Shown piece by piece: positions 33,854 through 63,501 of a stretch of 64,000 nt of DNA. The DNA is taken from IMG/VR virus record IMGVR_UViG_3300038393_002131; one strand, given 5' to 3'. Each line of letters starts with the position of its first letter. The stretch's first letter is position 1. Source of the DNA: a virus (Duplodnaviria; Heunggongvirae; Uroviricota; Caudoviricetes). The notes beneath the pieces are model-generated. The model did no database searches and was not told where the DNA came from. It saw nothing but the letters and a program-made list of their open reading frames with translations. A program made the translations under genes and the position numbers.

Positions 33854-34132
33854 GCCGACGGGCTCCCACTCGCTGCGCACGACCCACGCCCGGAACTGGC
33901 CGTGCCACGCGTCCGGGCTCGGGCAGAGGTACGGGTTGCAGTGCATGAGCATCGGCGGGAATCCGAGGCTGCTCGTCTCGAGGTGGCCCCAGCCGCGGTC
34001 GAGGCGGACCTTGACGCCCGTGGCGGCGACGGCCCGCGCCCACTCGGGCGCGCCGAGCGCGGCGTGCACCTCGGCCATGGCGGCGTTGATCTCGGCCGGC
34101 GTCATGACGGTTGTGTCAGTGAGCGTCGCCAC
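33851..34132 (-). CDS. hypothetical protein (93 aa)
   Basis: Its stop is embedded in the class-II motif TGAGGACGCGACACAACG. Confidence 0.4.
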   Translation of the reverse strand: MATLTDTTVMTPAEINAAMAEVHAALGAPEWARAVAATGVKVRLDRGWGHLETSSLGFPPMLMHCNPYLCPSPDAWHGQFRAWVVRSEWEPVG

Positions 34133-34664: not shown

Positions 34665-34799
34665 GGGTCCTCCGGTCGTGTCGGGGATCGGGACGCTTGT
34701 CCGATCACTCGGTAGCGTACAGGCGCTAAAGGTCCCGGGCAAGGGTCAGGGCCACCCGCGTCGCTACGACGGGTGACCCTGACCGGGATGCTCGGTGTG

Positions 34800-35696: not shown

Positions 35697-35792
35697 GGGT
35701 TGACGCCCTTCCTGTGGAGTCTGGACACTCCACGGTATTGCGCGGCTGTGCGGTTTCGCTTGCGACGCGCCCGCACAGCCGCGCGGGCCGGG

Positions 35793-37855: not shown

Positions 37856-38205
37856 GCGATCACCGCCAGCGCGTAGCGGTTGCGGGCCGTGGGCTGGCCG
37901 TTGCGGTACTCGAGGCGCTTCTGGCGGGTGATGACGCCAGCGCGGACCAGCTCGCCGAGGAACTGGCGGGCGCGGCCCTGGGTCATACCGGACGTTTCGG
38001 CGACCTCAATGAGGCCGAGCCAGCGGGCGCCATCCCGGGACAGGACGAGCATCGCGGCGGCGATCTTGAACGCCCCGTCGGTCAGCGGCCGCGCCACGAG
38101 AGCGGCGAGGGTGGCCGCTGCATCAACGGTCGGGGGGTTCTGGATGGGGAGGTGCGTGTCGGCTGCGAGTGCGTGTGCCGACGGGACCCTTGCGGGTACA
38201 GTCAT
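37852..38205 (-). CDS. winged-helix DNA-binding protein (~117 aa)
   Basis: Start at M96 (MTVPARV) with RBS GGTGAGGA; C-terminal wHTH-like GMTQGRARQFLGELVRAGVITRQ. Confidence 0.5.
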   Translation of the reverse strand: MTVPARVPSAHALAADTHLPIQNPPTVDAAATLAALVARPLTDGAFKIAAAMLVLSRDGARWLGLIEVAETSGMTQGRARQFLGELVRAGVITRQKRLEYRNGQPTARNRYALAVIA

Positions 38206-38414
38206 GAGTGTCCTCACCGGAGACGTGGTAGTTGCTTGGTGGGGCTGACGGCGGCGATCTGCTCGACACACCCGGGGCCAACCGGGGAGCGGAGAGGCCG
38301 CCGTCGTCTTTCCATGTGGAGTTCTGCCGCCGAACGTACGCCCGGGGCAGGCGGCAGCACGGGAGGCGCGCCGCGAGGTGGGGGGAAGCATGGGTGGGGT
38401 CCTTGCCTTGGTGC

Positions 38415-38777
38415 CTAGGCCGAACGCTGACGGCCAGTCCTCTTGAGGTGGTTGCGGGTCTCTGCCGACTTGAAGTCGTGACCAGCCCACACACCGTACC
38501 GCTCGTCACGCTCTAGCGCGCCCTGTAGACACGCCGCCGCCACCGAGCATCTTCCGCAGACCTGCCGGGCCTGCTCGAGCATCATCTCCGCCTCAGCCTG
38601 TTTGAGCGGGTAGCTGTGCTCGCCCTCGTCCGGGCTGGCGTAGGGGAAGAAGATCTCCGGGTCCTCGTCGCGGCACGGCTCGGGCGTCGGCGGCTCGGCC
38701 GGCATGGCGGCGAGGGTCATGACGCCCCGTTCCCGGCGGGCGGGCCGGTCGGAGCGGGCGTCGCGCTCGGCGCGCAT
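38415..38777 (-). CDS. WhiB-family transcriptional regulator
   Basis: Four Cys in WhiB spacing (C..DPEIFFP...C.RCSVAAAC); only the 3' ~100-120 codons of track ORF 38415..40262 are judged coding; start 38720 or 38777. Confidence 0.7.
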   Translation of the reverse strand: MRAERDARSDRPARRERGVMTLAAMPAEPPTPEPCRDEDPEIFFPYASPDEGEHSYPLKQAEAEMMLEQARQVCGRCSVAAACLQGALERDERYGVWAGHDFKSAETRNHLKRTGRQRSA

Positions 38778-38842
38778 CATCCGGTTGCCGCCGGCGAGGT
38801 TCGCGAGGACCTCGGACTCGGGGACGATGAACGGCGCGCGCC

Positions 38843-39499
38843 TCATGCCGCGGACTCCTCGCCCTGGTGCGCGACGACCGTGCCCTCGATAGTGGCGTGG
38901 GCCTCGAGCTGCCGGTCGGCGGCCGCGACGAGCGCGTCGATGTCGAAGTCGGCCGCGAGCTGGTCGAGGACCTCGTCGCGGGCGTCGCGCTTCTCCTGCG
39001 CGCCGGCGCCGGTGAACGGCGTGAACCGGGTGGTGGTCGCCGGGCCGGCCGCCTTGTAGGCCAGGCCGGGGATCGTCTCGCCGGTGTTCTTGTTGTAGAC
39101 CGTGCCGTCCTCGGCGACCGCGACGTTCTTCGGGTCGGTCATCGTCTTGAGGACGTTGCCGCGGACGGTGACCTTGACCTCGAGCGCGCCGGGGTTCGTC
39201 TCCTCGAGGTGCTCGATGAGGTCGCCCTCGTCGGCCACGTAGAACGAGCCCTTGGGCTCGACGACGGTGACGGTGCCGATGTGCACGCCGTCGTGCAGGA
39301 CCTCGATGGACTTCTGCCGGCCCTCGACGCCGGGGTTGTTGAAGCGGTCGAGCAGCTGCTCGTCGGCGGCGGCGCGCATCTTCGTCGTGAGGCCCTTGGC
39401 CTTGGACACGATGCGGTCGGCGACCATGTGCGCGAGGTACTGCTGCGCGGCCGTGGCGAAGCCGATGCCGCCGGTGCTGGGGTCGGTGACCTGAGTCAT
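38843..39499 (-). CDS. hypothetical protein (~219 aa)
   Basis: Start at M31 (MTQVTDPS); first minus-strand gene after the divergent switch region. Confidence 0.5.
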   Translation of the reverse strand: MTQVTDPSTGGIGFATAAQQYLAHMVADRIVSKAKGLTTKMRAAADEQLLDRFNNPGVEGRQKSIEVLHDGVHIGTVTVVEPKGSFYVADEGDLIEHLEETNPGALEVKVTVRGNVLKTMTDPKNVAVAEDGTVYNKNTGETIPGLAYKAAGPATTTRFTPFTGAGAQEKRDARDEVLDQLAADFDIDALVAAADRQLEAHATIEGTVVAHQGEESAA

Positions 39500-39764
39500 G
39501 GGGGTTCTCTCCCGTGTGTCGGCCGGGGACGCAATCCCGGCGTGTGGCTGCAGTTTCGCACACCCGCTCATCTCGGGCAAGGGTTGCAACTAGACACGCG
39601 GCGCGCCGACTGCACAAAGTGCACCGGCTGCAGTGCACTTTCGGCCGACACCCCTGACACCACCCCCAACGCGCAGGCGCGCGACAGGCGCGCACGCGCG
39701 CGTACGCGCGAGGAATGCATTCTGTCAACTCCGGCCCCACCCGCCCCTGCTCTACGATTGGCGC
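39500..39764. promoter_or_regulatory. divergent switch region with operator-like palindromes and GCGCGC repeats
   Basis: TGCACAAAGTGCA palindrome; inverted repeat AAAGTGCAC-N8-GTGCACTTT (~39608-39640); then CAGGCGCGCACGCGCGCGTACGCGCGA. Confidence 0.5.
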
Positions 39765-40241
39765 ATGGCGGACCGGGTTGTATCTCCACGGGCCCGAGCG
39801 GCGTTCGTCCTCGCGGCCCTCGCCGTCGACCTCGCCGACGCGTCCCGTGACCTCGTCGCCGACATCGCGACCCCGCACCGCCCGGGCGAGCTCACCTACC
39901 GGGTGCGGCAGCAGCTGCGTGTCGCGTCCGTCGCGGCCGTCGATCTCGCCCTCATGATCGAGGCCTACGACGGCGCGTCGTGGGATGTCCTGGCCGACCG
40001 GTCGCTGGTGCCGGCCGCCGAACTCGAGGCCCGGTACGAGCCGGTCCTCACCTCGTGGCGCGCGGGCGTGTGGGCCCTGCCGCCGAACGGTGTCGTCTAC
40101 GCGCAGTTCCTCCCGGCGTTCCAGCTCGAACCGGACCTTGACACTGCGGCCGCGCTCGACAGCTGGTGCGCGCGCGCACGGGACCCGCGCGACGAGATCA
40201 GCGGCGACGGGCCGGTGGTGCGCGCGCTCACCACGTTGTAG
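39765..40241 (+). CDS. hypothetical protein (~159 aa), plus strand
   Basis: High-GC3 coding signal with Ala/Val/Leu-rich sequence; preceded by the palindrome-rich region 39590-39764 and followed by a bidirectional terminator at 40291-40318; start uncertain. Confidence 0.45.
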   Translation: MADRVVSPRARAAFVLAALAVDLADASRDLVADIATPHRPGELTYRVRQQLRVASVAAVDLALMIEAYDGASWDVLADRSLVPAAELEARYEPVLTSWRAGVWALPPNGVVYAQFLPAFQLEPDLDTAAALDSWCARARDPRDEISGDGPVVRALTTL

Positions 40242-40290
40242 CGCGCGCGGGCGTGCGCGCACCGACGGGGAATCGCGCGCGCACGACGAA

Positions 40291-40318
40291 GGGCGGGCAG
40301 TCGAGTGACTGCCCGCCC
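40291..40318. terminator. bidirectional hairpin between the plus gene 39765..40241 and the minus ATPase gene
   Basis: GGGCGGGCAGTC-gagt-GACTGCCCGCCC, perfect 12-bp stem. Confidence 0.55.
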
Positions 40319-40353
40319 TCCCCTTGTCCGCTGCGTGCGCGTGCGCGTGCGCG

Positions 40354-41949
40354 TCAGGCGTTGACCGGCTCGCCCGCGCGGTCGGCCGCGTCGACGTCGT
40401 GCGCGCCGATCAGCTCGGCCCACATGCGGAACGTGCCCTTGCCGATGCCCGCGTACGCGTCGGCCTCAGCCGTGCGTCCCTGCGCCCGCAGGCCCTCGAT
40501 GACGCCCGGGCGCATCTTGAGGGCGTGGGCCTTGAGGACGAGCGTGTCGAGGCCCGTGACGTCCTCCGCGCCCGACTCGGCGACGATGGACGCGACGAAC
40601 TGCGCAGGGGTCGCGCCGAGCACCGACGCCTGCCCCTCCAACTCGGAGAGGATGAACGTGCGCTGCAGGTCGCGCGGCTGCTTGGCGCGCGCGGTCTGCT
40701 TCGCCTGGTACTCGTTGTTCGCGCGCTGGCCCTCCGGCTCGGTGCGCGTGTCCGGCTCGGTCGCGGGCGCGCTCTGCGCGTGCACGGGCTGGTCCTGCTG
40801 TGCGCGCGCCTCGCGCGCACCCTCACCCTGCGGCGCGCGCGCGGCCTCGTCCTGCTGCGCGGGCGCACCGGCGGTCTGCTGCGCGCGCTCCCGCTCGGCG
40901 CGCGCGGCCGCGATCTGCTGGTCGACCTGCGCGCGCCACCCGGCGACGAGCTGCACGCCGTTGACCGGGGTGCCGTCGGGAGCCTGCGTGTGGATGCCTG
41001 CGAGGGTCCGCTCGCCGTACTTGGTGTAGACGTCGCGAAGTGCCGGGAGCCGGGCCTCGACGTCGTCGAGGTTGACGGCGGCCTGCACGTCACCGAGGAA
41101 CTCGTCGACGAGGATCACGTCCTCATCCGCCCCCGGGCCGTCTGCCGTGGACATGATGTTGTGCGACCGCTGGCCGACCTCGGCCGCGTCGGCGAGACCC
41201 AGCACCCGCCAGAACGCATCCATGGAGAAGTCGGGGAATGCGGTGCTCCGGTCGTAGACGCCGGTCTTGACCGGCTCCCGCCGCACCGACCGGGTGCCGG
41301 TGACGTACCACTCCCGGTACTCCGGGGCCTCGACCACGGCACCGACGTCTGACGCAAGGCCCTTCTGAGCCTTGATCTTCCAGTGACGGTCCTTGGTCGG
41401 CTTCCCGGCCGCGTCCATGACCACCTGATTCTCGAGCAGGGCTGTCACGATGACGGGGCCGTCGTGGGCGCGGAGGACGTCGACGACGTCGTACCAGTCG
41501 TTCTTGGCCTTGTTCCACAGGTCGGGGTGGACGGTGACCTCGTCGTCAGGGCTGTAGGGCTTGTTGTACTTCTCGGCGGCCTTCTTGGCGCGACGGTGTG
41601 CGGCCTCGTTGGCCTTGTCCGAGAGGAGCTCCCACCAGCGGCCGGCGCCGTCGAGGATGAGCAGGTTCGGCTTGCTCGGGTCGACGCGCGGCTGGGTGGA
41701 GGCGTCCTTGAGGGCCTCGAGCATGCCGCGGTGGGTGCCGTCGTGCAGGGCGATGTCGAAGCGGGCGCCGGGGATCAGGCCGTACTCGTCCGGGTCGTCC
41801 TCACCGCAGGACACGACGAAGCCGTGACCGACGAGCGGCGAAGCGGTCGCCTCGATCGCGGTGTAGGTCTTGCCCTTCTTCTCGCCAGCGGCGAGGAGGG
41901 TGATGGGCCAGGACGGGAGGCCGGTGGGCTTGCGGAACGTGGTTGCCAC
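40354..41949 (-). CDS. P-loop NTPase (RecA-like/AAA-type ATPase, ~531 aa)
   Basis: GTG at 41949 with RBS GGAGAA and class-I leader hairpin; Walker A AAGEKKGKT near the N-terminus, Walker-B-like LLILDGAG; acidic/Gln-rich C-terminal half. Confidence 0.55.
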   Translation of the reverse strand: MATTFRKPTGLPSWPITLLAAGEKKGKTYTAIEATASPLVGHGFVVSCGEDDPDEYGLIPGARFDIALHDGTHRGMLEALKDASTQPRVDPSKPNLLILDGAGRWWELLSDKANEAAHRRAKKAAEKYNKPYSPDDEVTVHPDLWNKAKNDWYDVVDVLRAHDGPVIVTALLENQVVMDAAGKPTKDRHWKIKAQKGLASDVGAVVEAPEYREWYVTGTRSVRREPVKTGVYDRSTAFPDFSMDAFWRVLGLADAAEVGQRSHNIMSTADGPGADEDVILVDEFLGDVQAAVNLDDVEARLPALRDVYTKYGERTLAGIHTQAPDGTPVNGVQLVAGWRAQVDQQIAAARAERERAQQTAGAPAQQDEAARAPQGEGAREARAQQDQPVHAQSAPATEPDTRTEPEGQRANNEYQAKQTARAKQPRDLQRTFILSELEGQASVLGATPAQFVASIVAESGAEDVTGLDTLVLKAHALKMRPGVIEGLRAQGRTAEADAYAGIGKGTFRMWAELIGAHDVDAADRAGEPVNA

Positions 41950-42042
41950 GGGTGGTTCTCCATCTGCTGTCGGGCCCGGGGACGCTCTCCCGGGGTACGT
42001 CTTTAGTAACTGCACGCTATCGCACATCGGCGACAGCGCCAA

Positions 42043-42146
42043 GGGTTTGAGTATGCACGCGCCCTAAGACAGTGACGCGCGCACCCGAACCGGTCGGATG
42101 CGCGCGTCAGAGGACGTGCGATGCGCGTGCAGGACGCGCGCGGAGA
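42043..42146. repeat. GCGCGC-rich intergenic repeat block upstream of the ATPase gene
   Basis: ACGCGCGC, GACGCGCGCAC, GATGCGCGCG, GCGATGCGCGTG, GACGCGCGCGG, GTGCGCGCGCGG. Confidence 0.5.
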
Positions 42147-42740
42147 TCAGTACCGTGCGCGCGCGGCCGGCCGCGAACGGCCAGTGCTGCCACCGCCGCC
42201 TGCGCGCGCAGCGCGCGCCTGCTGCTTGCGCGCGCGCTTCTGCTCACGGACCTTCTCCTCCTCCTCGTCGAGGATCTGGCGCGCGCGCTCGGGCGTGATC
42301 GTCTCGCCGGCCAAGAGCAGCTGGTAGACGCGCTCCTTGGTGCGCGCGCGGGGGTTTGGTGAGGTGTCGAGGATGCCAGCGCGCGCCTTCTCGAGCTTGT
42401 TGATCTCCAAGAGGATCTGCCGCTCGTGGCCGACCATGTTGCGGAACATCTCAGTGTTCCTGCGCCGCTCCTTGGTCGAGATGTCCTCACCGCTGCGCGC
42501 GCGCACCTCGCTATTGGCGCTGTTCACGAGGAACGTCGCCGCGGCGACCGACCGGCGAATAAGGCGGGGGTCGCGGAACGCGGCCTGGCGTGAGGCGTCC
42601 TCGACAGTGCGCACCGGAAGCATGATGGAGTCAGCCAGGAGCTCGGCGTACTGCCGCTCATCGAGTACGTGCTCGAGCTGCGAGACGAGAATGTCGACGC
42701 GCGCCTTGTCGGGAATCGGACGGGGCGGATCGGTTGACAT
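42147..42740 (-). CDS. hypothetical protein (~197 aa) with basic Lys/Arg-rich C-terminus
   Basis: Start at M34 (MSTDPPRP); lies just downstream of the long non-coding region 42741-43251. Confidence 0.5.
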   Translation of the reverse strand: MSTDPPRPIPDKARVDILVSQLEHVLDERQYAELLADSIMLPVRTVEDASRQAAFRDPRLIRRSVAAATFLVNSANSEVRARSGEDISTKERRRNTEMFRNMVGHERQILLEINKLEKARAGILDTSPNPRARTKERVYQLLLAGETITPERARQILDEEEEKVREQKRARKQQARAARAGGGGSTGRSRPAARARY

Positions 42741-43251
42741 GTGGGGTTCTCCCGGTGGGGTGTCGGTGAGCGTGGACGCTGTTCCGCTGTAAGCGCATCG
42801 TAGCGACGACGCAAAGCGCGCGCTGCTAGACGCGCACACCCCTATTGCAATGCGCGCGCACTCACGCTTCGCGATATGAGAGATGGCCGCTCGGTCTACC
42901 GGAGGGTTCGTGTGCCGGATCGTAACCGTAGCGTTCGGCGTCCCCGTCGCTTAGTCGCGACACCACATGTCGTGGCGACCAGGCCCAACCCATGAAGGAC
43001 CTTTTGACTCGCGCGCTCAAATGGTGTTGATCCGCCGTACACGCGACAGTTTCCTGTCCCGTGGACACAACAGCGGCACCGCTTTTGAGCACCTGTGACG
43101 ATCGACCTCCGGCAGCCCGAGCGGCCACCTCTGCGGTCAGTGTAGCGAGCCGAACCTAAATATGCGTGGTGGGGCTAGCGCAAGGTTCGAGCAAGATGTA
43201 CCGCGCGCGTGCGCGCGAACCACTATGGGCGCGCACGCGCGCGGCGTGTCG

Positions 43252-43614
43252 TCAGGCCGCCTCGAGCTCGTCGAGGCCCGGGCCGTCATCCTTCGGCTTC
43301 GGCGTGGTAGCCGCCTCGATGACCTGCGCAAGGCCAGTCGCCTTGTAGAACCGCTGGTAGAAGGTCTCGCAGGAGGCGTAGATCGACAGGAGCACCGCGA
43401 CGAAGTCGCCGGGTCCCTCGATGTGGCTGTTCGACAGGGTCAGCACCGTGCCGATGACGGCGGCCGCGGCCACCGAGATCAGGGTGCGGGTGCGCGCCGA
43501 GAACGTCGGCCGCGACACGAGCGACACGATGACGGGCGTGACCGCGCCGACGACGGCGCCGATCGCGACGGCGTTCGTCGTCAGGTACGTGAGCAGGGTG
43601 TGCAGGAACTCCAT
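43252..43614 (-). CDS. holin-like membrane protein (~120 aa, 3 predicted TM helices)
   Basis: Start at MEFLHTLL with RBS GGGAGGG; three hydrophobic helices and a charged C-terminus. Confidence 0.45.
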   Translation of the reverse strand: MEFLHTLLTYLTTNAVAIGAVVGAVTPVIVSLVSRPTFSARTRTLISVAAAAVIGTVLTLSNSHIEGPGDFVAVLLSIYASCETFYQRFYKATGLAQVIEAATTPKPKDDGPGLDELEAA

Positions 43615-43684
43615 GGGCCCTCCCGGGGGATGCGGGCCCGCGGGTCGGGCCACAACGCGCCCGAGGGTGGCCGCGAGGGGGTGC

Positions 43685-44248
43685 TTACGTCGCGGCCTCG
43701 GCGGTCGCGGTGGTGACCTCGACCTTGACCTCGGCGGCCGGCGGCGTGCGGGGCGGGAACAGGGGTGGGATGGGCGGCAGGTCCTCGACGCCTACGGCCT
43801 TCATCCGAGCCAGGGCGAGGTGGTCCCACACGGAGTGCTCGACGAGCAGCATCCGCTGGGTGTGCTGGTCGGATTCGAGCTGCCCTACCCGGGAGATGAG
43901 CTCGAGGGTGCGGGTGTCCTGCTGACTGATGATCCCGGCCTGCCGGGACACCTCACGCTGCATCGGCTCGACGAGGGTGAGCGCGATCTGCGTGAGCTTC
44001 TCGGCGGCGTCCGCGTCGGTCTTGTCGGTCTCGGCCTTGACCTTGTCGGCCTCCGCGCTGAGCTTCTGCCGCTCGGCGCGGGCCTTGATGAGGGCGGAAA
44101 CACCCGCAAGGCCGCCGACCGCGCCGACAGGTCCACCGATCGCGACGGCGTAGGTCAGCCACGTTGGCAGCTCGGTCATGGGGTGGTGGCTTTCGTCTCG
44201 TCGGGGTGGTCGCGCGGGGTCGGACCCCCGGGAGGCTGACGAGCCCAT
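43685..44248 (-). CDS. membrane-anchored coiled-coil protein (187 aa; lysis-accessory or spanin-like candidate)
   Basis: RBS GGAGGA before the ATG at 44248; one TM helix then an extended helical region and a Pro-rich C-terminus. Confidence 0.45.
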   Translation of the reverse strand: MGSSASRGSDPARPPRRDESHHPMTELPTWLTYAVAIGGPVGAVGGLAGVSALIKARAERQKLSAEADKVKAETDKTDADAAEKLTQIALTLVEPMQREVSRQAGIISQQDTRTLELISRVGQLESDQHTQRMLLVEHSVWDHLALARMKAVGVEDLPPIPPLFPPRTPPAAEVKVEVTTATAEAAT

Positions 44249-44302
44249 CCCGGGGGTCCTCCGCGAACCCCACCGCGGGACGCACGATCCCTGACGGCCG
44301 AG

Positions 44303-44320
44303 GCTTGTGTCGCGTCCTCG
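44303..44320 (+). repeat. class-II motif copy between the Tal gene and the lysis-region gene
   Basis: GCTTGTGTCGCGTCCTCG. Confidence 0.55.
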
Positions 44321-44327
44321 CGCGGGG

Positions 44328-47300
44328 TCAGCGGGTGTACGTGATGCGCAGGAGCGGCTTGCCGCTGGCGGTGTGGTTGGCGAACCCGAGGTAGTTCGTG
44401 CGCGACCCGCTCACGCCGGGGCCGATGATGACGACGCGGTAGCCGTTCTTGATGACGTTCCACGACCCGACCGGCAGCGTGACCCACTTGCCCTGCCCCT
44501 CGGTGAACGAGATGTAGTTCCCGTACGAGGAGTCGGCCGAGGGTGAGACGGCCGTCGCGTTCGAGATGTTCGTGAGGTTCTGCATGCCGAACCGCTGCGA
44601 CCCGCCGCTCGAGGAGTAGGTGCTGACGCACTTCACGTAGACCTCGACCTTCTGGATGGTCGTCGAGGCGGTGATCGCGCTCGTGATCGTCTTGCCCGGC
44701 TCGGAGCCGCCCGTCGCGGGGTCGGTGAAGGCGATGTGCGCGAACTGGTTGCCGTTGGTCGACGAGTAGTAGCCGGAGAGGACCTTCCCGCTGTCGACGG
44801 CCGTGTTGATGGTGTTGTCGCCGTAGGGGCTGTTGCCGCGGCGGGTCTGGCTGCCCGATGCGGTCCAGTACGTGACGTAGGTCTTCTTCTGCGTCGTCGG
44901 GGTGACGCCACCGGTGGAGTCCGTGCCGCCGGTGTAGAGGGTGCCGCCGCCCTTGTTGCTCTGCCAGGTGTCGGGCACGTCGACCCCGAGGTCCTCGACG
45001 ATGCACTCGAGCGGGTGCGGCGCGGAGGAGCCGCCCCAGTTCTCGAGCTTGAGGTAGTCGGTGGCCCCGGCGAAGGTCGTGCCGACGGTCAGCATCATGC
45101 GGATGTTCCGGGGGGTAGACCCGGCCGCGACGAGGCTCTCCTGCATCGTGAGTGCCGGGATCGGGACGGGCACGCCGTTGGCGGGGAATGGCACGAACAC
45201 GGCCCGTGCGACCTGGCTGTTGCCGGGGATCGACGGCGTCGCGGCCGCGACGTCAGGGCCGCTCGAGATGGTGTAGCGCAGGCGGACGGTGCCGACCATT
45301 CCGGGCGCGCCGGTGTTGGCGGTGAGGGTGCCGCCGGTGAACACGAGGCGGTAGAGCCGGCCCGGCTGGTGCAGCCAGGACACCTCGTAGATGCCGTACT
45401 CGGTGCGGATCTTGTCGATGGTCAGCGCGTCGCGGCGGTAGACCTGCTGGATGGCGCCCTGCGGCAGGCGCGCCATGCGGTCGGCGTGGTCCTCACCGCC
45501 GGGCAGGATCAGCCCCGGGTAGTCGTCGAGGCCGTTCGCGGCGTCGACCGTGTTGACGACGGTCAGCCCGGTGAAGGAGCCGGCGCCCGTGTCGGACACG
45601 CCCGCGACCGCGGCCCCGTCACGGTTGACGGTGAAGTAGGCGGGCCGGTTGGACACCAGCGCGGTCGCCTCGTCGCCCTCGTTATTGAACAGGCGCAGTC
45701 CGGCCGACGTCAGCTCGGAGGCCCCGCCGGCGCCCGCCTCGACCACGGACACGTCATCGAGGTAGACGTAGGTGTCCGCGGCGACGTTGGAGACGGTGAA
45801 CCGCAGCGCGCAGAACAGGTCGGTGGCCGCCGGGTCGACGACGATGTCGCCGCTGTCGCCGCTGTAGGAGCTGCTCGTGATCGACGTGAACGCCGAGTAG
45901 GGCGGGTTCGTCACACCGTCGGACACCGCCACGGGCGCGGCCTCGTTCAGCGTCGACGAGCTCGAGCCGAAGATGGCCTCGACGGTGAGGTTGGCGACGC
46001 CGGCGCCGGACGCGCCAGCACCGTTCGACAGGGCGTACCAGTTGACCCGGTACGTCTTGCCCGCCTCCACTGCGAATGTCGACGTGTAGCCCCGGGCGAT
46101 GGTCGCCGTGCTGCCGGTGGTGTCGACGCCGATGACGAGCCGGCGCACGCCGGTGCGGGCCTTGCCGATGGACCGGTAGACGGTCGCGCCGGTGCCTGTG
46201 CGCGCCTGCCGCCACTGGTAGGTGAGGCCCTGTCCGGGGTCGGTGAAGTAGGTCAGGGCCGAGGTGTCCTCGAACCCTGGGTCGGCGACAAGGTTCGAGC
46301 GCAGCACGCCCATCTGCAGCTTGTCGAGGGTGACCGCGCCGGCCTCGATGGAGTCGGCCTTGATGCTGTTGGCCTTGATGTGCTGGGCCTCGATCGACCC
46401 GTCGACGAGGAGACGGCCAGTGCCGCGGCCGCGGACGCGGATCGCGATGGACTGCGCGGCGGTTTGCTCGGTGCCGTTGGCGTGGTTGAAGAAGATCTGC
46501 CCGACGCGCATGCGGGTGACGCCGGCGTTGGCGACCACCTTGGCGCTGTAGCGGGTCCACACCGTCGGCACGATGAGGTTCTCGACCGGGTAGAGGCCGC
46601 TGACGACACCAGTCGTCTCGGTCCCGATGGCCGTGCTGGTCGCGGCGTGGTTCCCGTCCTGATCGCGGAGCTCGACGTAGATGCGCGAGTTCGGCTTGTC
46701 GGCCTTCACCCACATCTCGAACAGGTACTCGCCACCAGATTCGGGAACGTCCCACCACAGCGACGGCGGCTGATGCGTCGACGCGCCAGCAGCGCTCTTG
46801 AACACGCCGCGGATCTCGGTCGGCCGGTCGACGGTGTCGAGGGTGAACGTGGACGTCGTCGGGAACAGGCCGCCGAGGGTGCCCCACTCCCCGGTGCCGT
46901 TCGGGACGAGGTTGGTGGCGCCGCCGATGATGAGCTGGTCGGCGCCGATGGTGTGGGCCCTGATGATGACGCCGTCGATGGTGTCGGCCTGGATCTGCCC
47001 GCCGTCGATCTTGGTCTGCCCGGAGAAGGTCCACGTGTCGACCCGGGCCTTGGTGTTGGAGGAGTCGGAGAGGGCCTGATCGATGTCGTCGAGGATCTGC
47101 TGCGGCAGGTCGCCCGTGACGAGCGGCTCGGTCGCGATCGACTGCACCGCGGACGGCATCGACCGGTTGCCGTTGACGTCGACGGCGACGAGCCGGAAGT
47201 ACCACGTCTCCCCGTACGGGAGCCCGGTCACGAGCGCGACCGCGTCGGCCTGGTAGAGCCGGTCAACGGTGATGACGCCGCCGGCGAACCCGGAGGACAG

Positions 47301-49001
47301 GCACCGCTCGACGACGACGTGGTCGAAGTCCTCGGGCATCGCCGCAGGCCCGGGCAGGCCCATGCCGTCCCAGCGGCACGACACGACCCCGGCCTTCTGC
47401 GTCAGGACCGGGTCGGTGGGCATGATCGGGGGCGTGGTGTCGACCGGCATGTAGACCGCTTCGGAGTACGTCCAGTCCGACCGGTTGCCGAAGATGTCCT
47501 TGGCGAGCACGCGCGCCCGGACGAGGTCCATGGGCTTGAGCCCGTCGACGAGCTCCTGGGTGTCCTTCGACGTCTTCGCCGCCGACCATGGCGACCCGTT
47601 GATCGCGACCTGCACCTCGTAGCCGTCGAGGTCCTCGAGGATCGTGCCGTCGGAGTCCTGATCGACGAACGGCCATGTGATCGTCGCTTTCGACCGCCAC
47701 ACCTTGCGGATGCCCTCGTCGTACAGGCTGCTGTCACCGGTGACGGTGCACGCCGCGGGCTGCACCGGCGGGATGGTGTCGCGCTGTGGTGCGCGGGGCG
47801 CGGGCAGCCGGACACCGGTGGAGCCGTTGGTGATCGCGGACACCTGTTGCGCGGTGCGCGTCGTCTGCTTGACGAACAGGTCGGCCAGCTCGATCGAGCA
47901 GGTGGGCGCCCGGAACGTGTCGCCCCAGTTCTTCGTGATCGAGCGCACGAGGAGCGGCTGGAACGTCTGCGAGTCGATCTTGGCCCGGTCGTAGTAGATC
48001 CGGTCGCCGACGAAGAAGTCGATGCCCGGCCGCGGCCAGTACTCGCCCGGCCCCGGAGGGTTCATCACCATCTCGAGGGTGAAGGCCTCCTTGAACTGCT
48101 GATGCTGCGACAGCTCACGGTTGCCGAGGTTCGTCAGCTGCGCCGTCTTGGTCAGGCGCCCGTCCGAGGCGAACCCTTCGCGCCGGCCGAACCGGGACGC
48201 GGTGCCGGTGTTGGCGACCTGCACGGTGGCCTTCTTGTCGGCGTCGCCGGCGGCGAGGACGTGGGAAAGGATGTTGCGCCGCGACCGCTTCCGCGGCGCC
48301 GACTGGACGTTCTGGCCGTACCGGAGCATGTCGCTCTTGGTGCCGAAGTACGTGTCGGGCACGAACAGGCGCAGCGTGCGGCCCTCGACGCGGGCGTCGA
48401 CCCAGCCGTCGTTAATCATGTCCGTCACCAGCGAGAGCAGGTTTGTGCCCGCGGGGTAGGTGATGTCGTACTTCTTGGGCCACGCCCGGCCGGCCGAGTC
48501 GGTCGCGGTCACGAAGTCGTACTGCAGCTCGTTGAGGCCGCCGCGGATCTTCGCCTCGTTGATGAGGACGGCCACGATGTTGCCCGGCGTCGCGTCGTCG
48601 AACTTGTACTCCGGCTTGAGGCCGTAGAGGTTCGACCCGGACGCGTTGGCGCCCTTCGGGTAGACGACAGCCTGCTCGAGCACCGACATGTAGCCGCGCG
48701 CGGAGCAGGTCACCCACCGCTTGCGGGTCAGGGCGCTGGCCGGGTCGTCCGTGTCGTCCTCGAGGATGAACAGGTCGCTCGACACGATGCCGTCCTCGTT
48801 GACCGCCAGGAACAGCTCGTCCCGGTCGAGGAAGGCGTTGTTCACCCCGTCGCGCAGGTACTTGAACGTCATCGTGCCCGGCTCGTTGTCGACCGTCTGG
48901 ATGGACAGGTCGGTGAAGTCGGGCATCAGCCCAAGAGCCGTGCCGTTTCGGTCGTACGCGCGCAGAAAGACACCCATAGTGGCCGGACAATGACCGGCCA
49001 C
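44328..49001 (-). CDS. tail-associated baseplate hub / receptor-binding minor tail protein (Tal-like, 1557 aa)
   Basis: Immediately downstream of Dit and TMP; the N-terminal ~350 aa resembles siphovirus Tal (gp27-like) domains, followed by a long beta-rich region; GTG start at 49001. Confidence 0.75.
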   Translation of the reverse strand: MAGHCPATMGVFLRAYDRNGTALGLMPDFTDLSIQTVDNEPGTMTFKYLRDGVNNAFLDRDELFLAVNEDGIVSSDLFILEDDTDDPASALTRKRWVTCSARGYMSVLEQAVVYPKGANASGSNLYGLKPEYKFDDATPGNIVAVLINEAKIRGGLNELQYDFVTATDSAGRAWPKKYDITYPAGTNLLSLVTDMINDGWVDARVEGRTLRLFVPDTYFGTKSDMLRYGQNVQSAPRKRSRRNILSHVLAAGDADKKATVQVANTGTASRFGRREGFASDGRLTKTAQLTNLGNRELSQHQQFKEAFTLEMVMNPPGPGEYWPRPGIDFFVGDRIYYDRAKIDSQTFQPLLVRSITKNWGDTFRAPTCSIELADLFVKQTTRTAQQVSAITNGSTGVRLPAPRAPQRDTIPPVQPAACTVTGDSSLYDEGIRKVWRSKATITWPFVDQDSDGTILEDLDGYEVQVAINGSPWSAAKTSKDTQELVDGLKPMDLVRARVLAKDIFGNRSDWTYSEAVYMPVDTTPPIMPTDPVLTQKAGVVSCRWDGMGLPGPAAMPEDFDHVVVERCLSSGFAGGVITVDRLYQADAVALVTGLPYGETWYFRLVAVDVNGNRSMPSAVQSIATEPLVTGDLPQQILDDIDQALSDSSNTKARVDTWTFSGQTKIDGGQIQADTIDGVIIRAHTIGADQLIIGGATNLVPNGTGEWGTLGGLFPTTSTFTLDTVDRPTEIRGVFKSAAGASTHQPPSLWWDVPESGGEYLFEMWVKADKPNSRIYVELRDQDGNHAATSTAIGTETTGVVSGLYPVENLIVPTVWTRYSAKVVANAGVTRMRVGQIFFNHANGTEQTAAQSIAIRVRGRGTGRLLVDGSIEAQHIKANSIKADSIEAGAVTLDKLQMGVLRSNLVADPGFEDTSALTYFTDPGQGLTYQWRQARTGTGATVYRSIGKARTGVRRLVIGVDTTGSTATIARGYTSTFAVEAGKTYRVNWYALSNGAGASGAGVANLTVEAIFGSSSSTLNEAAPVAVSDGVTNPPYSAFTSITSSSYSGDSGDIVVDPAATDLFCALRFTVSNVAADTYVYLDDVSVVEAGAGGASELTSAGLRLFNNEGDEATALVSNRPAYFTVNRDGAAVAGVSDTGAGSFTGLTVVNTVDAANGLDDYPGLILPGGEDHADRMARLPQGAIQQVYRRDALTIDKIRTEYGIYEVSWLHQPGRLYRLVFTGGTLTANTGAPGMVGTVRLRYTISSGPDVAAATPSIPGNSQVARAVFVPFPANGVPVPIPALTMQESLVAAGSTPRNIRMMLTVGTTFAGATDYLKLENWGGSSAPHPLECIVEDLGVDVPDTWQSNKGGGTLYTGGTDSTGGVTPTTQKKTYVTYWTASGSQTRRGNSPYGDNTINTAVDSGKVLSGYYSSTNGNQFAHIAFTDPATGGSEPGKTITSAITASTTIQKVEVYVKCVSTYSSSGGSQRFGMQNLTNISNATAVSPSADSSYGNYISFTEGQGKWVTLPVGSWNVIKNGYRVVIIGPGVSGSRTNYLGFANHTASGKPLLRITYTR

Positions 49002-49023
49002 GGGTGCTTAGGTCGCGCCCTCC

Positions 49024-54482: not shown

Positions 54483-54662
54483 GATGGTCGGGGTGTCCCT
54501 TCGGCTGGGAGTGGCGCGGGTGGGCCGCATGTCGTGGCCGAAGGTGCACGGGCGAGGGTGCTTGTGTCGCGCCCTCGGGGGTGGATGCGCGAACGGCCCG
54601 CCCCCGGGTGGGGAGCGGGCCGTCGCAGCGACCGGGTTTGGTGTCCTACCGGGTGGCGCCGA

Positions 54663-55241
54663 TCAGGCGGCCGGGTCGAACGCCGGGTCGTTGGTGAGGG
54701 TGTACCACGGGTCGGCGCTGTCGCTGCCGAGGACGGCGAGCTTGAGCGGCAGACGCGACTCGGCGCCCTTGTGCAGCTGCAGGGACACGCCCTCCATCTG
54801 GAACACGCGGGGCACGATCGTGCGGTAGATGAGGTCGCCCTTCTTGACCTGCACGATGGCCGCGACCTCGGTCCGCTCGCCGATCTTCGGCGGGACGAAC
54901 TTGAACTGCTTGGGCGTGGTCGCCGGCAGGATCTCGGTGATGCTGCCGCCGCCGTAGACGGCCTTGAAGTTGGCGCCGTTCCACTGCTGCAGGTCGACGG
55001 AGACGGTGGCCGACTCGCCGGTCTGGTAGCGCAGGGTCGGGAAGTTGGACTGCGCCGACTTGACCTCGCCGAAGGTGGGCTCGGTGGCGAAGGTCAGCGA
55101 GTCCTCCGGGGTGTAGCCGACGTTGAACCAACCCGTTCCGGGGTCGGCCGTGCAGTCGACGGGTGCGACGGTGCCCTTGGCAGCCAGCCACACGTCGGTC
55201 CGTGTGGGGACCTGGATTTCGTTCTCGTTGAACTCGGTCAT
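54663..55241 (-). CDS. major tail protein
   Basis: 192 aa beta-rich protein immediately upstream of the chaperones and TMP (canonical order). Confidence 0.6.
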   Translation of the reverse strand: MTEFNENEIQVPTRTDVWLAAKGTVAPVDCTADPGTGWFNVGYTPEDSLTFATEPTFGEVKSAQSNFPTLRYQTGESATVSVDLQQWNGANFKAVYGGGSITEILPATTPKQFKFVPPKIGERTEVAAIVQVKKGDLIYRTIVPRVFQMEGVSLQLHKGAESRLPLKLAVLGSDSADPWYTLTNDPAFDPAA

Positions 55242-55305
55242 GATGGTGGGCTCTCCACTCCCTCGGTAGGTGTCCGGTCAGTGGGAGAGGTTGACGAGTC
55301 GCACG

Positions 55306-55323
55306 GCTTGTGTCGCGTCCTCA
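55306..55323 (+). repeat. class-II motif GCTTGTGTCGCGTCCTCA (copy whose TCA is the TGA stop of gene 55321..55746)
   Basis: One of at least 10 same-orientation copies. Confidence 0.6.
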
Positions 55324-55991: not shown

Positions 55992-56011
55992 GGACTGTGC
56001 GCCGCCGCCGT

Positions 56012-56029
56012 GCTTGTGTCGCGTCCTCA
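56012..56029 (+). repeat. class-II motif copy (overlaps the stop of 56027..56637)
   Basis: GCTTGTGTCGCGTCCTCA. Confidence 0.6.
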
Positions 56030-58310: not shown

Positions 58311-58432
58311 GTCCCCTCCAAGGGCGATGTCGGTGGTGTTCGTGCGATGAACACGCGGAGGGTGTCTGGCGTGGCGTGCTTGTGTCGCGCCGTGGGCGGC
58401 CCGTCAGGTCACGAGCCGCCCACCGCGATCGG

Positions 58433-58900: not shown

Positions 58901-58955
58901 GATGGGTCGTGCCTTCCTGTGTGGTGGATATCCGCCCGGGACGCTGCCCGACCGC

Positions 58956-59543
58956 TCACCCTTGCGTCGCCTCCTCGCGCGCCACCAGCGAGCCACCGAC
59001 CGCGAGGCAGACACGCGTGTGCAGCTGGTCGATGCTCCCGTCGTTGACGATCACGGCGTCGAAGTCGTAGCCGTCGAGGGCAACCTCGCTGATGTGCACC
59101 TCACCGTCGGGGCCGACCGCCGGCCCGACGCCTGGGCGTTCGATCCGCAGCACGATCCCGCCGCGGGACCGGATGGCCTCAGCCTCGTTCGGGAACCGGC
59201 AGTCGACGAACACCGCTCCCCCGTCGCCGAGCCGGTCGAACGCGGCCCGCACCCACACGTCCTCGTCGATGTCACGCATGGCCTTCCCGAGCCGCTGCTG
59301 GGTGCGGCGCACGCCCGGGAACAGGTCCTTGGCGCGCTCGATGCCGTACGCGTCGATGAGCGCGGCGTAGGAGTAGGTGATGCCGTTGTGCACGATCTGC
59401 GGGTCGAGGGCGTACGCGGCGTCCTTGAGCGGCTGGGAGAACTTCGCGATCTGGAAGGCGGCCCGGGCGAGGATCTTCGCGGCCTCGTCCTTGCCGACGC
59501 GGGCGTACCCCGACAGGCCAACGAACACAGGGCGGTTCACCAT
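58956..59543 (-). CDS. P-loop nucleotide kinase (dNMP kinase-like)
   Basis: Start at MVNRPVFVGLSGYARVGKDEAAKIL (Walker A with a GKD as in T4-type dNMP kinases). Confidence 0.5.
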   Translation of the reverse strand: MVNRPVFVGLSGYARVGKDEAAKILARAAFQIAKFSQPLKDAAYALDPQIVHNGITYSYAALIDAYGIERAKDLFPGVRRTQQRLGKAMRDIDEDVWVRAAFDRLGDGGAVFVDCRFPNEAEAIRSRGGIVLRIERPGVGPAVGPDGEVHISEVALDGYDFDAVIVNDGSIDQLHTRVCLAVGGSLVAREEATQG

Positions 59544-59821
59544 GGCGTGTCCTCGGCCTCGTCGTCGATGTGGGAGTCGACCCCGACCAGCGACTTCTCG
59601 AGGCAGTCGAGGCACAGCCCGTCGAACGGGCCTTCGTCGTTGCCGCACTCGTGGCAGAGCGGGATGGGCGCGTCGAGGGTGGGCGAGCAGTCGACGCACT
59701 GGCCGAACTCGTCGAGCTCGTCGACCTCGCGCTGGCAGCCGACGCACACGGCGGGGACCTCGGGGGCCTCGTCGTCGTCAGGGATGATCGCGGTCATGGC
59801 GGGAAGGGACCACGGCGACAC
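59537..59821 (-). CDS. Cys-rich zinc-finger protein (start 59821 or 59797)
   Basis: CVGC...CVDC...CHEC...CLDC four Cys pairs. Confidence 0.45.
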   Translation of the reverse strand: MSPWSLPAMTAIIPDDDEAPEVPAVCVGCQREVDELDEFGQCVDCSPTLDAPIPLCHECGNDEGPFDGLCLDCLEKSLVGVDSHIDDEAEDTPW

Positions 59822-59845
59822 GCCTACGGTCGCGTCCTCAACCCT

Positions 59846-59920
59846 TGCGTCCGTAGCGCACAGTCGCTAACGTCACGGGCAAGGGCGGAAGCGTCCCGCC
59901 CATGACACCAAGGAGAGCCA
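59846..59920 (+). promoter_or_regulatory. plus-orientation copy of the cassette driving the small gene 59921..60079
   Basis: CAACCCTTGCGT-N17-TAACGT then GGCGGAAGCGTCCCGCC hairpin, ATGACACC, AAGGAGAG; shows the element orientation follows the gene. Confidence 0.5.
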
Positions 59921-61427: not shown

Positions 61428-61849
61428 CGCGGGCACCGGCAACCCGTGACGGTGCCCCGCTTGCGGTGCCGACGCAGCGTGTACGCCGCCACGACGGCGC
61501 CCGTGCGGTTCGTGAGCACGGTCGCGACCCCGGCCGCCGGGTAGGCGTCGTCGTCGACGCGCTTGCGCACCTCGGCCGCGACGGTCTCGTCGGTGGCCGC
61601 GATCCGGGCCAGGGCGACGGAGACGCTGCACACGGGCCCGGGCTTGGCTGGCGCGGAGACGAGCTCGGTCAGATCGTCGAGGATGCCGACGACGTCAGCG
61701 GGGGAGTCATGGGAGAGGTTGCGTGTCACGTCGCGCACGATGAGGGAGGCCCGGCCCTTGCGTCGCGCCCTCGCGTGGACGGTGGCTGTCAGGGCGGCCG
61801 CGTAGCGTCTGCTCTCGGTGGTCGACCGGCACCCATTCACATCAACCAT
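61424..61849 (-). CDS. hypothetical protein (~141 aa)
   Basis: Start at MVDVNGCRS; located after the capsid-gene terminator. Confidence 0.45.
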   Translation of the reverse strand: MVDVNGCRSTTESRRYAAALTATVHARARRKGRASLIVRDVTRNLSHDSPADVVGILDDLTELVSAPAKPGPVCSVSVALARIAATDETVAAEVRKRVDDDAYPAAGVATVLTNRTGAVVAAYTLRRHRKRGTVTGCRCPR

Positions 61850-61917
61850 GAATGCTCGTCGTGTCACGTTCACTTGCGTCACCGCCCCTGACGCACCGCG
61901 CCGGCCACCAAAGACGC

Positions 61918-61951
61918 GAGAGGCCCCCCACCCGAAGGTGGAGGGCCTCTC
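61918..61951 (-). terminator. intrinsic terminator after the major capsid gene
   Basis: 15-bp GC stem (one mismatch), loop CGAA, followed in minus sense by TCTTTGG. Confidence 0.6.
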
Positions 61952-61983
61952 GTCATGACAGGCCGTCAGGGACGACCCGTGGC

Positions 61984-63282
61984 TCACGCCGGGACGGTCC
62001 AGCTGCCCACGACGAAGCTCTCCGGGCGAGCGACCTCGAGCGCCAGGCGCTCGGTCGCGAGGAAGGTGCACGCGCCGTCCGTGAAGTTGGTCCCGTGCTC
62101 CGTGCTCGCGACGACCTTGACGCTCTCGCGGTCGTGCAGCTGGGCGCCGGTGCCGAACGCGCCGACGAGGAACTTCGCGTCGTCCATGGCGGTCGTCTCG
62201 ACGACCCGGAGGCGCCAGACGCGCTTCTCGGCGCCGATCGCGACGGAGACGGCGACACGGAACGCACCCGTGCTGTCCTCCTCGACCTCCACGGCCTCCC
62301 ACATCGTCGGCGAGAGAACGATGCCGTTCATCTCGTACTCCGCGAGGAGACCCTTGGTGATCGCGCGGCGGATCTGGACCGAGTAGCCGTCGGCGGCGAG
62401 ACCCGTGTAGGCCTGGACGCCGGGGCTGTTGAACAGACCCGTGATCTTCTCGCCCGACCCCGTGGAGTGCAGGAGGTCGTTGTCCTCGGCGTACTTGACG
62501 CCCTCGACGAGGCGGTTGTTGATGAACGACTTGAGTCGCCCGTCGTCCGCGAGGATGTTGACGTGCGCGTCGAGCGAGTGCTTGATCTCCGCGACGGGGA
62601 ACAGCACGGGCTCGAGGCGCAGCTTCGACTTCGGCGCGCGGCCGAACACGTCGTCGTCGGCGCCGGTGGCCGGGGACACGCCGTCGGCGGCGTAACGCTG
62701 CGCGACCTGCGCGGCGTTGTTCGTCCAGCCGAGCTCACGGAGCCCCGTCAGGACGGACGCCTTCGTGGTCGACTTCGGGAACAGGTCCCGAATGTGCATC
62801 TTGCGGTAGGCGCGCTCCGCGATGCCGAGGTCCTGGTTGGTGCCGAGGGCCTGGAACTCGTGGCTGCCGGCCGCGAAGTTGTAGAGGGACTTGCCCTCGA
62901 GCTGGACGGTGATGTTCGACACGTTGTCGAACCCGGCCTTCGCGGCGCGCTGGTAGGCCTCGGCGTCGGTGAACGCGTCACCGAGCGACTTGCCCTCGAG
63001 GCGGCCGGCGCCGGCGTCGAGCGCGGCCTCGGACGGACGCTCGGGGGCGTTGAGGTAGTCGTAGCCCTCGGCGACCTTCTCGACGGCGTCGATGAAGCTC
63101 TTGGCCTCGGCGGCCTCCATGACGGCGGTCTTGTACTTCGTGTACTCCTCGCGGGAGATCTCGAAGCGGCCCTTCTCGTCGGTCTTGAAACCGGAGGCGA
63201 TGCCCTCGATGTCGGCGTTCTTCTGCTCGAGGTCGGCCTTGGCCGCGGCGAGCATGCTCTTGTCGAGCGTGGCGGTGCTCAT
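61984..63282 (-). CDS. major capsid protein (HK97-like, with an N-terminal scaffold-like helical segment)
   Basis: 432 aa; N-terminal coiled-coil-like ~100 aa then a mixed alpha/beta domain; own promoter region and strong terminator. Confidence 0.75.
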   Translation of the reverse strand: MSTATLDKSMLAAAKADLEQKNADIEGIASGFKTDEKGRFEISREEYTKYKTAVMEAAEAKSFIDAVEKVAEGYDYLNAPERPSEAALDAGAGRLEGKSLGDAFTDAEAYQRAAKAGFDNVSNITVQLEGKSLYNFAAGSHEFQALGTNQDLGIAERAYRKMHIRDLFPKSTTKASVLTGLRELGWTNNAAQVAQRYAADGVSPATGADDDVFGRAPKSKLRLEPVLFPVAEIKHSLDAHVNILADDGRLKSFINNRLVEGVKYAEDNDLLHSTGSGEKITGLFNSPGVQAYTGLAADGYSVQIRRAITKGLLAEYEMNGIVLSPTMWEAVEVEEDSTGAFRVAVSVAIGAEKRVWRLRVVETTAMDDAKFLVGAFGTGAQLHDRESVKVVASTEHGTNFTDGACTFLATERLALEVARPESFVVGSWTVPA

Positions 63283-63501
63283 GATGTTTGGGGGTCCTTT
63301 CCCGTGTTCGCTGGCTGCGTGTGGCTGGTGTCAGCTCGTCCGCCCGGCCAGCGCCGGGACAGCCCGTCTAACGGAGCGGGAAGGTGTCAGGGGCGAAATG
63401 CTTGTGTCGCGTCCTCACGCGATAGCGTTGACTCGCTAAAGTCGTGCGGGTAGCGTTCGCAGGGCCGGGAAGCGTCCCCGGCAGACACACACGGAGGACC
63501 A
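63283..63501. promoter_or_regulatory. divergent promoter region between the capsid gene (minus) and a plus-strand operon
   Basis: Plus: class-II motif at 63400-63417, TTGACT-N17-TAGCGT, sense hairpin and RBS before 63502; minus: hairpin CCCGGCGCTGGCCGGG and RBS GAAAGGA before 63282. Confidence 0.5.
63400..63417 (+). repeat. class-II motif copy upstream of the capsid gene and of a plus-strand promoter
   Basis: GCTTGTGTCGCGTCCTCA. Confidence 0.6.

Follow-up and report, generated by a model that had tools for sequence, protein, structure and literature searches.

A repeated 18-mer in a relative of Streptomyces phage Gilgamesh as the probable −35 half of a late-type promoter family, with a BldN-like ECF sigma factor as its candidate reader

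The 18-mer that recurs in the window, by which we mean the whole 64,000-nt stretch of viral DNA analyzed here, is very likely the antisense reading of an extended −35 element, one half of a phage-specific, two-block promoter of the sigma-70 family. This identity was concluded because a −10 block lies at a fixed distance from the box and leaderless start codons follow it. The best overall explanation is that the sites form a late-type promoter family read by the phage's own BldN-like ECF sigma factor (probability roughly 0.7). The element has two blocks, points with its genes, lies between them, is conserved in relatives, and shows a recurrent start-codon geometry. Among the four roles proposed for the 18-mer in an earlier, sequence-only reading of the window, the evidence favors that of a recognition site for the phage ECF sigma factor, and we infer that this factor is the reader.

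Streptomyces phage Gilgamesh (129 kb) is the closest relative in culture; its capsid and tail tube proteins are 60% and 56% identical to those of the window, respectively, and its genome runs in the opposite orientation. The same virion genes were found on seven complete Streptomyces plasmids of 125–133 kb, and for this reason the lineage appears to consist of phage-plasmids. The relatives, which occur as circular plasmids of 125–133 kb, also carry genes for ParA/ParB, an FtsK-like translocase, and toxin-antitoxin systems. Past the window end at 64000, locus L008 (1–10000) encodes, on the opposite strand to the capsid gene and upstream of it, a conjugation-type AAA_10 ATPase, an M23 peptidase, a DUF5131 protein, and a metallophosphatase. 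The window had no nucleotide similarity to known phages, the exact 17-mer was not found in viral contigs, and a literature search on Gilgamesh, the motif, and phage ECF sigmas in actinophages returned nothing relevant.

Copies of the 18-mer and their two-block architecture

A search of the window with GCTTGTGTCGCGTCCTCA, allowing up to three mismatches, gave eight matches against 0.16 expected from dinucleotide shuffles (shuffle maximum, 1). They start at 23342, 30764, 33836, 44303, 54560, 55306, 56012, and 63400, and all eight are on the plus strand. This enrichment on one strand only indicates that the repeat is real. At least ten copies had been proposed; eight were recovered at this threshold, the copy at 58378 has four mismatches to the 18-mer and retains GCTTGTGTCGCG, and the match of the "partial" copy at 59827 spans 12 nt, GTCGCGTCCTCA. 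The positions listed earlier were correct except for 54561, which was measured as 54560. With a 13-nt core and up to two mismatches, 15 matches were found in the window against 4.2 expected, 14 of them on the plus strand. The sequence-only reading had let its proposal depend on orientation bias and copy enrichment, and the window scan showed both.

The G+C content of the window is approximately 70%, and codon-position G+C places nearly all of its genes on the minus strand; the 18-mer copies are therefore all co-oriented with transcription. The common orientation had been regarded as odd relative to the neighboring genes, a view that did not hold, as the reverse complement of every copy points with its genes. 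Read on the sense strand, the 18-mer is 5′-(T/C)GAGGAC-GCGACACAAG-C-3′. Each copy lies in a short intergenic gap and begins 0–90 nt past the stop codon of the preceding gene. As noted earlier, the terminal TCA of three copies is the stop codon of a minus-strand gene (ORFs ending at 33851, 55321, and 56027). In the relatives, the TGA of the preceding gene falls within the extended box at 32 of 158 unique sites.

The second block, CAnnnT (for example, CACAGT, CACCTT, and CACCCT), lies 13–14 nt downstream of the ...ACAAG end of the box. Scanning the window for the box followed by N13–14 and CAnnnT gave 12 hits where about one was expected, and every hit was on the minus strand. Addition of the copy at 44313, whose hexamer is GATCGT, brought the total to 13 sites, every one of which is intergenic and on the sense strand. 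A generalized pattern retrieved 11 of these 13 sites and nothing else in the window, with 0.24 matches expected. The hexamer was found at offset 13 or 14 in 10 of 12 window boxes, and the information content was high at box positions −6 to +9 and hexamer positions 1, 2, and 6 and near zero in the spacer. All sites lie at or beyond 23.3 kb; the gene-dense region of 1–23 kb, which is rich in early-type elements, has none. A scan of 53.8–64 kb for canonical sigma-70 promoters gave no hits.

In the proposed promoter, the extended box (T/C)GAGGAC-GCGACACAAG-C would occupy about −43 to −26, followed by a spacer of fixed length (13–14 nt) and free sequence, the −10 hexamer CAnnnT, and a G+C-rich discriminator. 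Transcription is predicted to start approximately 6–9 nt past the T of the hexamer.

The sense-strand placement of the box, its GAGGA, and its position just past stop codons and hairpins would also suit a signal acting in RNA on read-through transcripts, in processing, termination, antitermination, or translation. We regard such a signal as very improbable. RNAalifold predicted 0 pairs over 13 aligned copies, and no Rfam match was obtained; tRNA and Rfam scans of the window returned nothing. The end of the 18-mer is about 26–118 nt from the start codon, and hence the box is not a ribosome-binding signal, whereas the conserved block 13–14 nt downstream and its fixed distance to leaderless starts are properties of a promoter at the DNA level. 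The processing or termination role offered by the sequence-only reading was given up on the grounds that the copies share no consensus structure and that transcription is predicted to start downstream of the box.

Sites in the window, start codons, and neighboring elements

The copy originally flagged belongs to the putative tail tube promoter (55288–55323, minus strand), in which TGAGGAC-GCGACACAAG-C at 55306–55323 is followed by a 13-nt spacer and CAACCT at 55288–55293. Its TGA (55321–55323) is the stop codon of the tail-terminator gene, and the tail tube gene (54663–55241; Pfam PF25681) starts at ATG 55241 with a Shine-Dalgarno sequence. The major capsid promoter (63381–63417, minus strand) has its box at 63401–63410 and its −10 hexamer, CACCTT, at 63381–63386; a leader of about 90 nt with a Shine-Dalgarno sequence precedes ATG 63282 of the major capsid gene (61984–63282; Pfam PF05065). 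A hairpin-plus-T terminator (61917–61952, minus strand; 16-bp hairpin and T-rich tail) directly follows this gene. The capsid gene, lying between its promoter and this terminator, would thus form its own transcription unit.

The other sites are likewise on the minus strand. Five starts in the window are of the leaderless type. In site 61737–61773, with the variant box GCGACGCAAG and the −10 hexamer CATCGT, GTG 61729 lies 7 nt past the hexamer in frame with an ORF ending at 61424, a frame in which a gene was also called on locus L008. Site 55994–56029 contains the exact 18-mer and CACAGT; its TGA at 56027–56029 is the stop codon of the upstream gene, and ATG 55985 follows the hexamer by 8 nt without a Shine-Dalgarno sequence. 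The variant box GCGACCTAAG and CATTGT form site 48987–49023, and ATG 48977, 9 nt past the hexamer, starts a 1549-aa tail protein. Site 30745–30781 (CACGTT) is followed after 6 nt by GTG 30738 and serves a ParB-like gene and then a small terminase subunit homologue. Site 23324–23359 (CACCGT) comes after a terminator-like hairpin, and ATG 23316 lies in frame 7 nt past its hexamer. All five are predicted to yield leaderless mRNAs.

The remaining window sites have leaders of 35–100 nt with clear Shine-Dalgarno sequences. Site 58941–58977, which has the box GCGACGCAAG and CAGCGT, precedes ATG 58900, with its Shine-Dalgarno sequence, of a gene for an IPT/TIG-domain protein. Site 58359–58395 (box GCGACACAAG, CACCCT; ATG 58310) is syntenic with the Gilgamesh site 53716 upstream of gene 58. 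Site 54541–54577 (CACCTT) follows the tail tube gene and a hairpin and precedes the tail assembly chaperone and tape-measure genes; at this junction, about 20 of 43 relatives have a site at locus position ~10,590–10,620, where the tail-tube match is at 10,001. Site 44284–44320 matches the 18-mer at 17 of 18 bases, has the deviant −10 hexamer GATCGT, and precedes ATG 44248 of a membrane protein gene. Site 43664–43700 combines the variant box GCGACGTAAG with CACCCT upstream of ATG 43614. Site 33817–33853 (box GCGACACAAC, CAAGGT) includes the TGA of the preceding gene within its box and is followed by a stable tRNA-like structure of about 95 nt and then by ATG 33711 of the esterase gene. Long tail proteins are also encoded in the window, and a ParB-like gene, a small terminase subunit homologue, an SSB, and an AAA ATPase were recognized by homology.

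Taken as promoters, the 13 sites would serve the capsid, head-tail, tail tube, chaperone/tape-measure, tail, membrane-protein, esterase, and ParB/TerS genes. Their upstream end would often overlap the TGA of the preceding gene, and about a third of them would give leaderless mRNAs.

The start-codon geometry was evaluated against background. An in-frame start codon without a Shine-Dalgarno sequence was present 6–9 nt past the −10 hexamer at 5 of the 13 window sites, compared with 4% after any CAnnnT on the minus strand (P about 1e−4). Independently annotated starts in relatives lie exactly 6–7 nt past the hexamer: those of Gilgamesh genes 56 and 62 (52245 and 56138) and four of the MBT27 plasmid, a complete Streptomyces phage-plasmid (7355, 23728, 32739, and 45221). 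An ATG or GTG 6–8 nt past the hexamer was found at 53 of 158 unique sites in the relatives. Leaderless mRNAs are common in actinobacteria, and the geometry, as read from the sequences, fits promoters of such mRNAs.

Several further sites in Gilgamesh (MN234216) bear on annotated starts. The site at 129064 (129064–129136 joined to 1) has ATG 129101 7 nt past its hexamer; from this ATG, the reading frame continues over the end of the genome and joins, in frame, the large terminase gene, whose annotation begins at base 1. The sites at 28757–28794 and 46199–46235 suggest 28794 and 46235 as the starts of genes 45 and 50, 12 and 42 nt inside the annotated ones, respectively.

Other features were observed near the window sites. 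Directly downstream of promoter site 33846, the segment 33715–33806 (minus strand) folds into a stable structure (−59.7 kcal/mol, z = −4.0) with a 13-bp closing stem, three internal hairpins, and a tRNA T-arm-like GCGGGTTCAAATCCCGC, and it ends 4 nt ahead of the esterase ATG 33711. ARAGORN and Rfam found nothing in this segment; a tRNA-like leader, a small RNA, and an attP-type tRNA fragment are candidate identities. At 59821–59848 (minus strand), the "partial copy" consists of the box GCGACCGTAG, 14 nt, the hexamer TCCCTT, 6 nt, and ATG 59821, which opens a 94-aa zinc-ribbon ORF. It may be a weak or decayed fourteenth member that keeps the geometry of a leaderless promoter with a degenerate box and hexamer. 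The leadered late genes at 63282, 58900, 55241, and 54482 share the start context (a/c)CATC-ATG, located about 8–10 nt past a Shine-Dalgarno sequence of the GGAAGG or GGGAG type.

The copies at 59827 and 63400 adjoin plus-strand promoters, as had been reported. This adjacency is that of a divergent early-type promoter lying back to back with the element and gives the 18-mer itself no role. The two plus-strand promoters form a separate early class that merely neighbors the copies, and the proposed function as an UP or activator site was discarded for this reason.

The early-type promoters have features of their own. The palindrome TTAGCGA-N5-CGCTA(A) occurs 12 times in the window against 1.3 expected, at 17507–17523, 34712–34729, 59853–59870, and 63422–63439 and in weaker form at 15751, 16830, and 42003 among other places; the occurrence at 63422–63439 is back to back with the capsid promoter. 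Canonical promoters with the pattern (a)acccTTGACC-N3-TAGCGCACAG-N4-TAAAGT, which precede early-type genes of both strands, contain the palindrome in their spacer and −10 region; it resembles an operator at which a repressor would control host-type early promoters. Nearly every early-type gene also has in its 5′ leader a class-I element, which consists of a short G+C stem-loop with the conserved loop (A)AGCGTC and, downstream of it, GACAC(A) ahead of the Shine-Dalgarno sequence and start codon. It was found on the minus strand in the gaps 633–735, 1039–1319, 2004–2104, 2882–2979, 3967–4058, 5598–6032, 6690–6884, 11728–11900, 13390–13526, 15693–15782, and 17446–17934 and on the plus strand at about 63455–63500. 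The class-I element could be a 5′ stabilizer, a processing site, or a protein-binding site. It has GACAC in common with the late box. The proposed match between the GCGTCC core of the 18-mer and the class-I loop is a 6-mer likeness in the opposite orientation relative to transcription, and we treat it as chance.

The separate palindromic operator in early promoters also speaks against the 18-mer copies being stoperator-like sites, at which an immunity repressor blocks elongation, as gp71 does in Cluster A mycobacteriophages such as L5. Like stoperators, the sites are numerous, asymmetric, and oriented with transcription, and they lie in short intergenic gaps, often overlapping stop codons. They differ in having a second block at a fixed distance and start codons 6–9 nt past that block, for which a stoperator offers no reason, and in being limited to a subset of genes (23–64 kb, virion genes) rather than spread over both arms. 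The box also has no sequence similarity to the L5 stoperator site, GGTGGMTGTCAAG. We therefore consider a stoperator function highly unlikely.

Relatives of the window phage and the candidate reader of the box

To examine conservation, 43 related viral loci were gathered via tail-tube homologues with 51–60% identity. The box alone occurred 140 times in the sense orientation and once in antisense in these loci, and 115 of the 140 boxes had CAnnnT at offset 13 or 14, while every other offset from 0 to 30 gave at most two. The full two-block pattern was found 167 times in sense and once in antisense. Positions outside the search pattern were conserved as well, namely A at −5, G at −4, C at −1, and C at +10. 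All 11 sites on the MBT27 plasmid were on the sense strand.

In an eight-genome footprint of the 55994–56029 junction, the box, the hexamer, the gap of 7–8 nt, and the ATG are conserved, while divergence is seen in the sequence of the spacer, in the flank upstream, and in the proteins encoded. At the tail-tube junction, the relatives have variant boxes (GCGACGTTAA, GGGACGGTAA, GCGACGCTAG, and others) followed by N14 and CAAGGT or CATCGT. These variants define G1, G3, A4, C5, and A9 as the invariant box positions, and the exact 18-mer is the window phage's own strong consensus.

Three relatives have a giant gene of 3,800–5,400 codons between the portal and capsid genes, outside the window: Gilgamesh gene 48 (31978–45852), 7355–23422 on the MBT27 plasmid, and 16839–28367 on a Thermobispora plasmid. 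It is annotated as "helicase-related" in one of them, and the MBT27 copy is served by a leaderless promoter of the late-box family.

The contiguous 17–18 bp of conserved sequence repeated ahead of late genes recalls promoters of a phage single-subunit (T7-like) RNA polymerase, and GACAC is also present in the SP6 promoter. Promoters of single-subunit polymerases are conserved through +1, whereas the sites described here have two blocks with a free spacer between them, which rules out a T7-type promoter. In addition, the annotations of Gilgamesh and the MBT27 plasmid list no such polymerase gene, and none was found among the large window ORFs scanned. We find this reading hardly conceivable.

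The candidate reader is encoded by an ECF-type sigma factor gene at 26120–26815 (plus strand; Pfam Sigma70_r2 and r4_2). Its product is 34.5% identical to Gilgamesh gp92. No box was found in the region upstream of the gene. Homologues were present in Gilgamesh and in each of the seven complete Streptomyces plasmids of this lineage; at E ≤ 1e−15, the remainder of the 72,556 plasmids had none. A single-protein search for relatives of the sigma factor in viral contigs found nothing, and an alignment-based search recovered it in only 5 of 43 related contigs; since 7 of 7 complete plasmids carry the gene, this low recovery is a limit of the peptide-pattern search. The co-occurrence of sigma factor and box is confined to one clade and is therefore not independent evidence, and the sigma factors of the window and Gilgamesh are only about 35% identical with the same box, which counts against a link between them. 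We judge the assignment of this sigma factor as the reader of the box to be slightly better supported than an even chance.

Housekeeping sigmas prefer T at −12. The corresponding hexamer position 1 was C in 130 of 146 sites (89%) and T in three (2%), which suggests discrimination against the housekeeping consensus. Typical ECF promoters have AAC in the −35 element and CGT in the −10 element, about 16–17 nt apart. The late box has AA at positions 8–9 and the hexamer GT at positions 5–6 with a BldN-like spacing, yet the consensus is CAAG plus CAnnnT, and only about half of the sites have G at hexamer position 5, so that the typical AAC/CGT motifs are only loosely matched. The likeness to sigma-BldN lies in the protein, for which BldN is both the best NCBIfam family and the best solved structure (6dxo), and in the distance from AA (−35) to GT (−10), which is within 1 nt of that in the Streptomyces sigma-BldN promoter bldMp1, CGTAAC-N16-CGTTGA (PMC2375139). 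The differences are CACAAG instead of CGTAAC, CAnnGT instead of CGTTGA, and a family score of 121 bits, below the cut-off of 206.

In the Thermobispora bispora plasmid NZ_CP039125, a distant relative, the tail tube and capsid proteins are 40% and 47% identical to those of the window, respectively. It carries at least 15 similar boxes, GGGACGTTAA followed by 12–13 nt and (C/T)AnnnT, co-oriented with the genes and including one with a leaderless GTG at 86663. No homologue of the sigma factor was detected in NZ_CP039125 (best HMM E-value 3.9, against 3.6e−44 for the positive control). The motif is thus not restricted to elements that have the sigma factor; the exception is a single distant plasmid whose box differs slightly and whose −12 position is T or C. 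This relative argues that the ECF sigma factor may not be needed to read the box.

The boxes of the sigma-less Thermobispora relative would be expected if the promoters were read by a host sigma factor, either HrdB helped by a phage activator or sigma-remodeling factor bound to the box or an alternative host sigma, the phage ECF sigma serving another purpose. Further points are in keeping with a host sigma. The GAC core lies 17–18 bp from the xAnnnT hexamer, whose A and T are invariant; this is the canonical sigma-A geometry (TTGACA-N17-TAnnnT), and the 16–18 bp conserved here exceed the usual −35 element. A WhiB domain is encoded in the window. The GACA in the box corresponds to the part of TTGACA contacted by sigma region 4, which WhiA also contacts on a GACAC motif (PMC10243135). 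Against a host sigma stand the C at −12, the retention of the ECF sigma by every related Streptomyces element, and the clearly different canonical promoter class used by the early genes, and no activator candidate was identified. On balance, we consider reading by a host sigma unlikely.

A related idea, which we hold to be more doubtful still, is that a phage factor yet to be discovered, of the sigma-appropriation or WhiB type, redirects the host housekeeping holoenzyme to GCGACA-N17/18-CAnnnT in actinobacterial phage-plasmids; if true, it would explain the use of the box by the sigma-less Thermobispora relative. WhiA itself was rejected as the protein that binds the box. GACAC is absent from variant boxes (GCGACGTTAA), so WhiA is no general reader, and the motif sits at the −35 position itself. 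The phage-encoded ECF sigma factor remains our preferred reader of these promoters.

Known systems and biological meaning

In the proposed scheme, the early genes would be transcribed by host RNA polymerase with its housekeeping sigma factor from canonical TTGACC-N17-TAAAGT promoters. The BldN-like ECF sigma factor (26120–26815) would then be made and would direct core polymerase to the boxes, switching on the virion, packaging, and lysis-region genes, presumably late in infection.

Late or middle promoters read by phage-encoded sigma factors are known in SPO1 (gp28 and gp33/34), T4 (gp55), and phiEco32 (gp36). As in these systems, the consensus described here is phage-specific, unlike that of the host, and repeated ahead of late genes, the sigma gene lies in the early/middle region, and the early genes have host-type promoters. 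The present case differs in its setting, a Streptomyces phage-plasmid lineage with a sigma factor that is BldN-like by sequence, and in its promoters, which have an unusually long −35 box (~16–18 bp) and a −10 hexamer CAnnnT, about a third of them being predicted to give leaderless mRNAs. T4 middle promoters combine a MotA box at −30 with a host −10 element through sigma appropriation. They resemble the sites described here in having a conserved box in place of the canonical −35 element, about 13 bp from an xAnnnT −10 hexamer, but here no MotA/AsiA homologue is known, −12 is C and not T, and a sigma gene is present. The start-associated sequences of Cluster K mycobacteriophages are also repeated intergenic motifs upstream of genes with a GGAG-like core. 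They lie a few bases from the start codon, whereas the distance from the box to the start codon varies from about 26 to 118 nt and the fixed partner of the box is the −10 block; on this ground, they were rejected as an explanation.

The element is probably of a known kind, namely phage late promoters read by a phage-encoded sigma factor, not previously described in Gilgamesh-like phages, and nothing known about phage transcription is overturned. It would improve the annotation of gene starts, several of which become leaderless; for Gilgamesh, the annotated starts of genes 45 and 50 and the large terminase subunit should probably be revised. The two-block pattern gives a testable consensus for the late transcription program of the little-studied Gilgamesh-like Streptomyces phage-plasmids of about 125–135 kb and assigns a likely job to the conserved ECF sigma factor of this lineage. 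The sigma factor and its promoters are also a candidate orthogonal pair for Streptomyces engineering.
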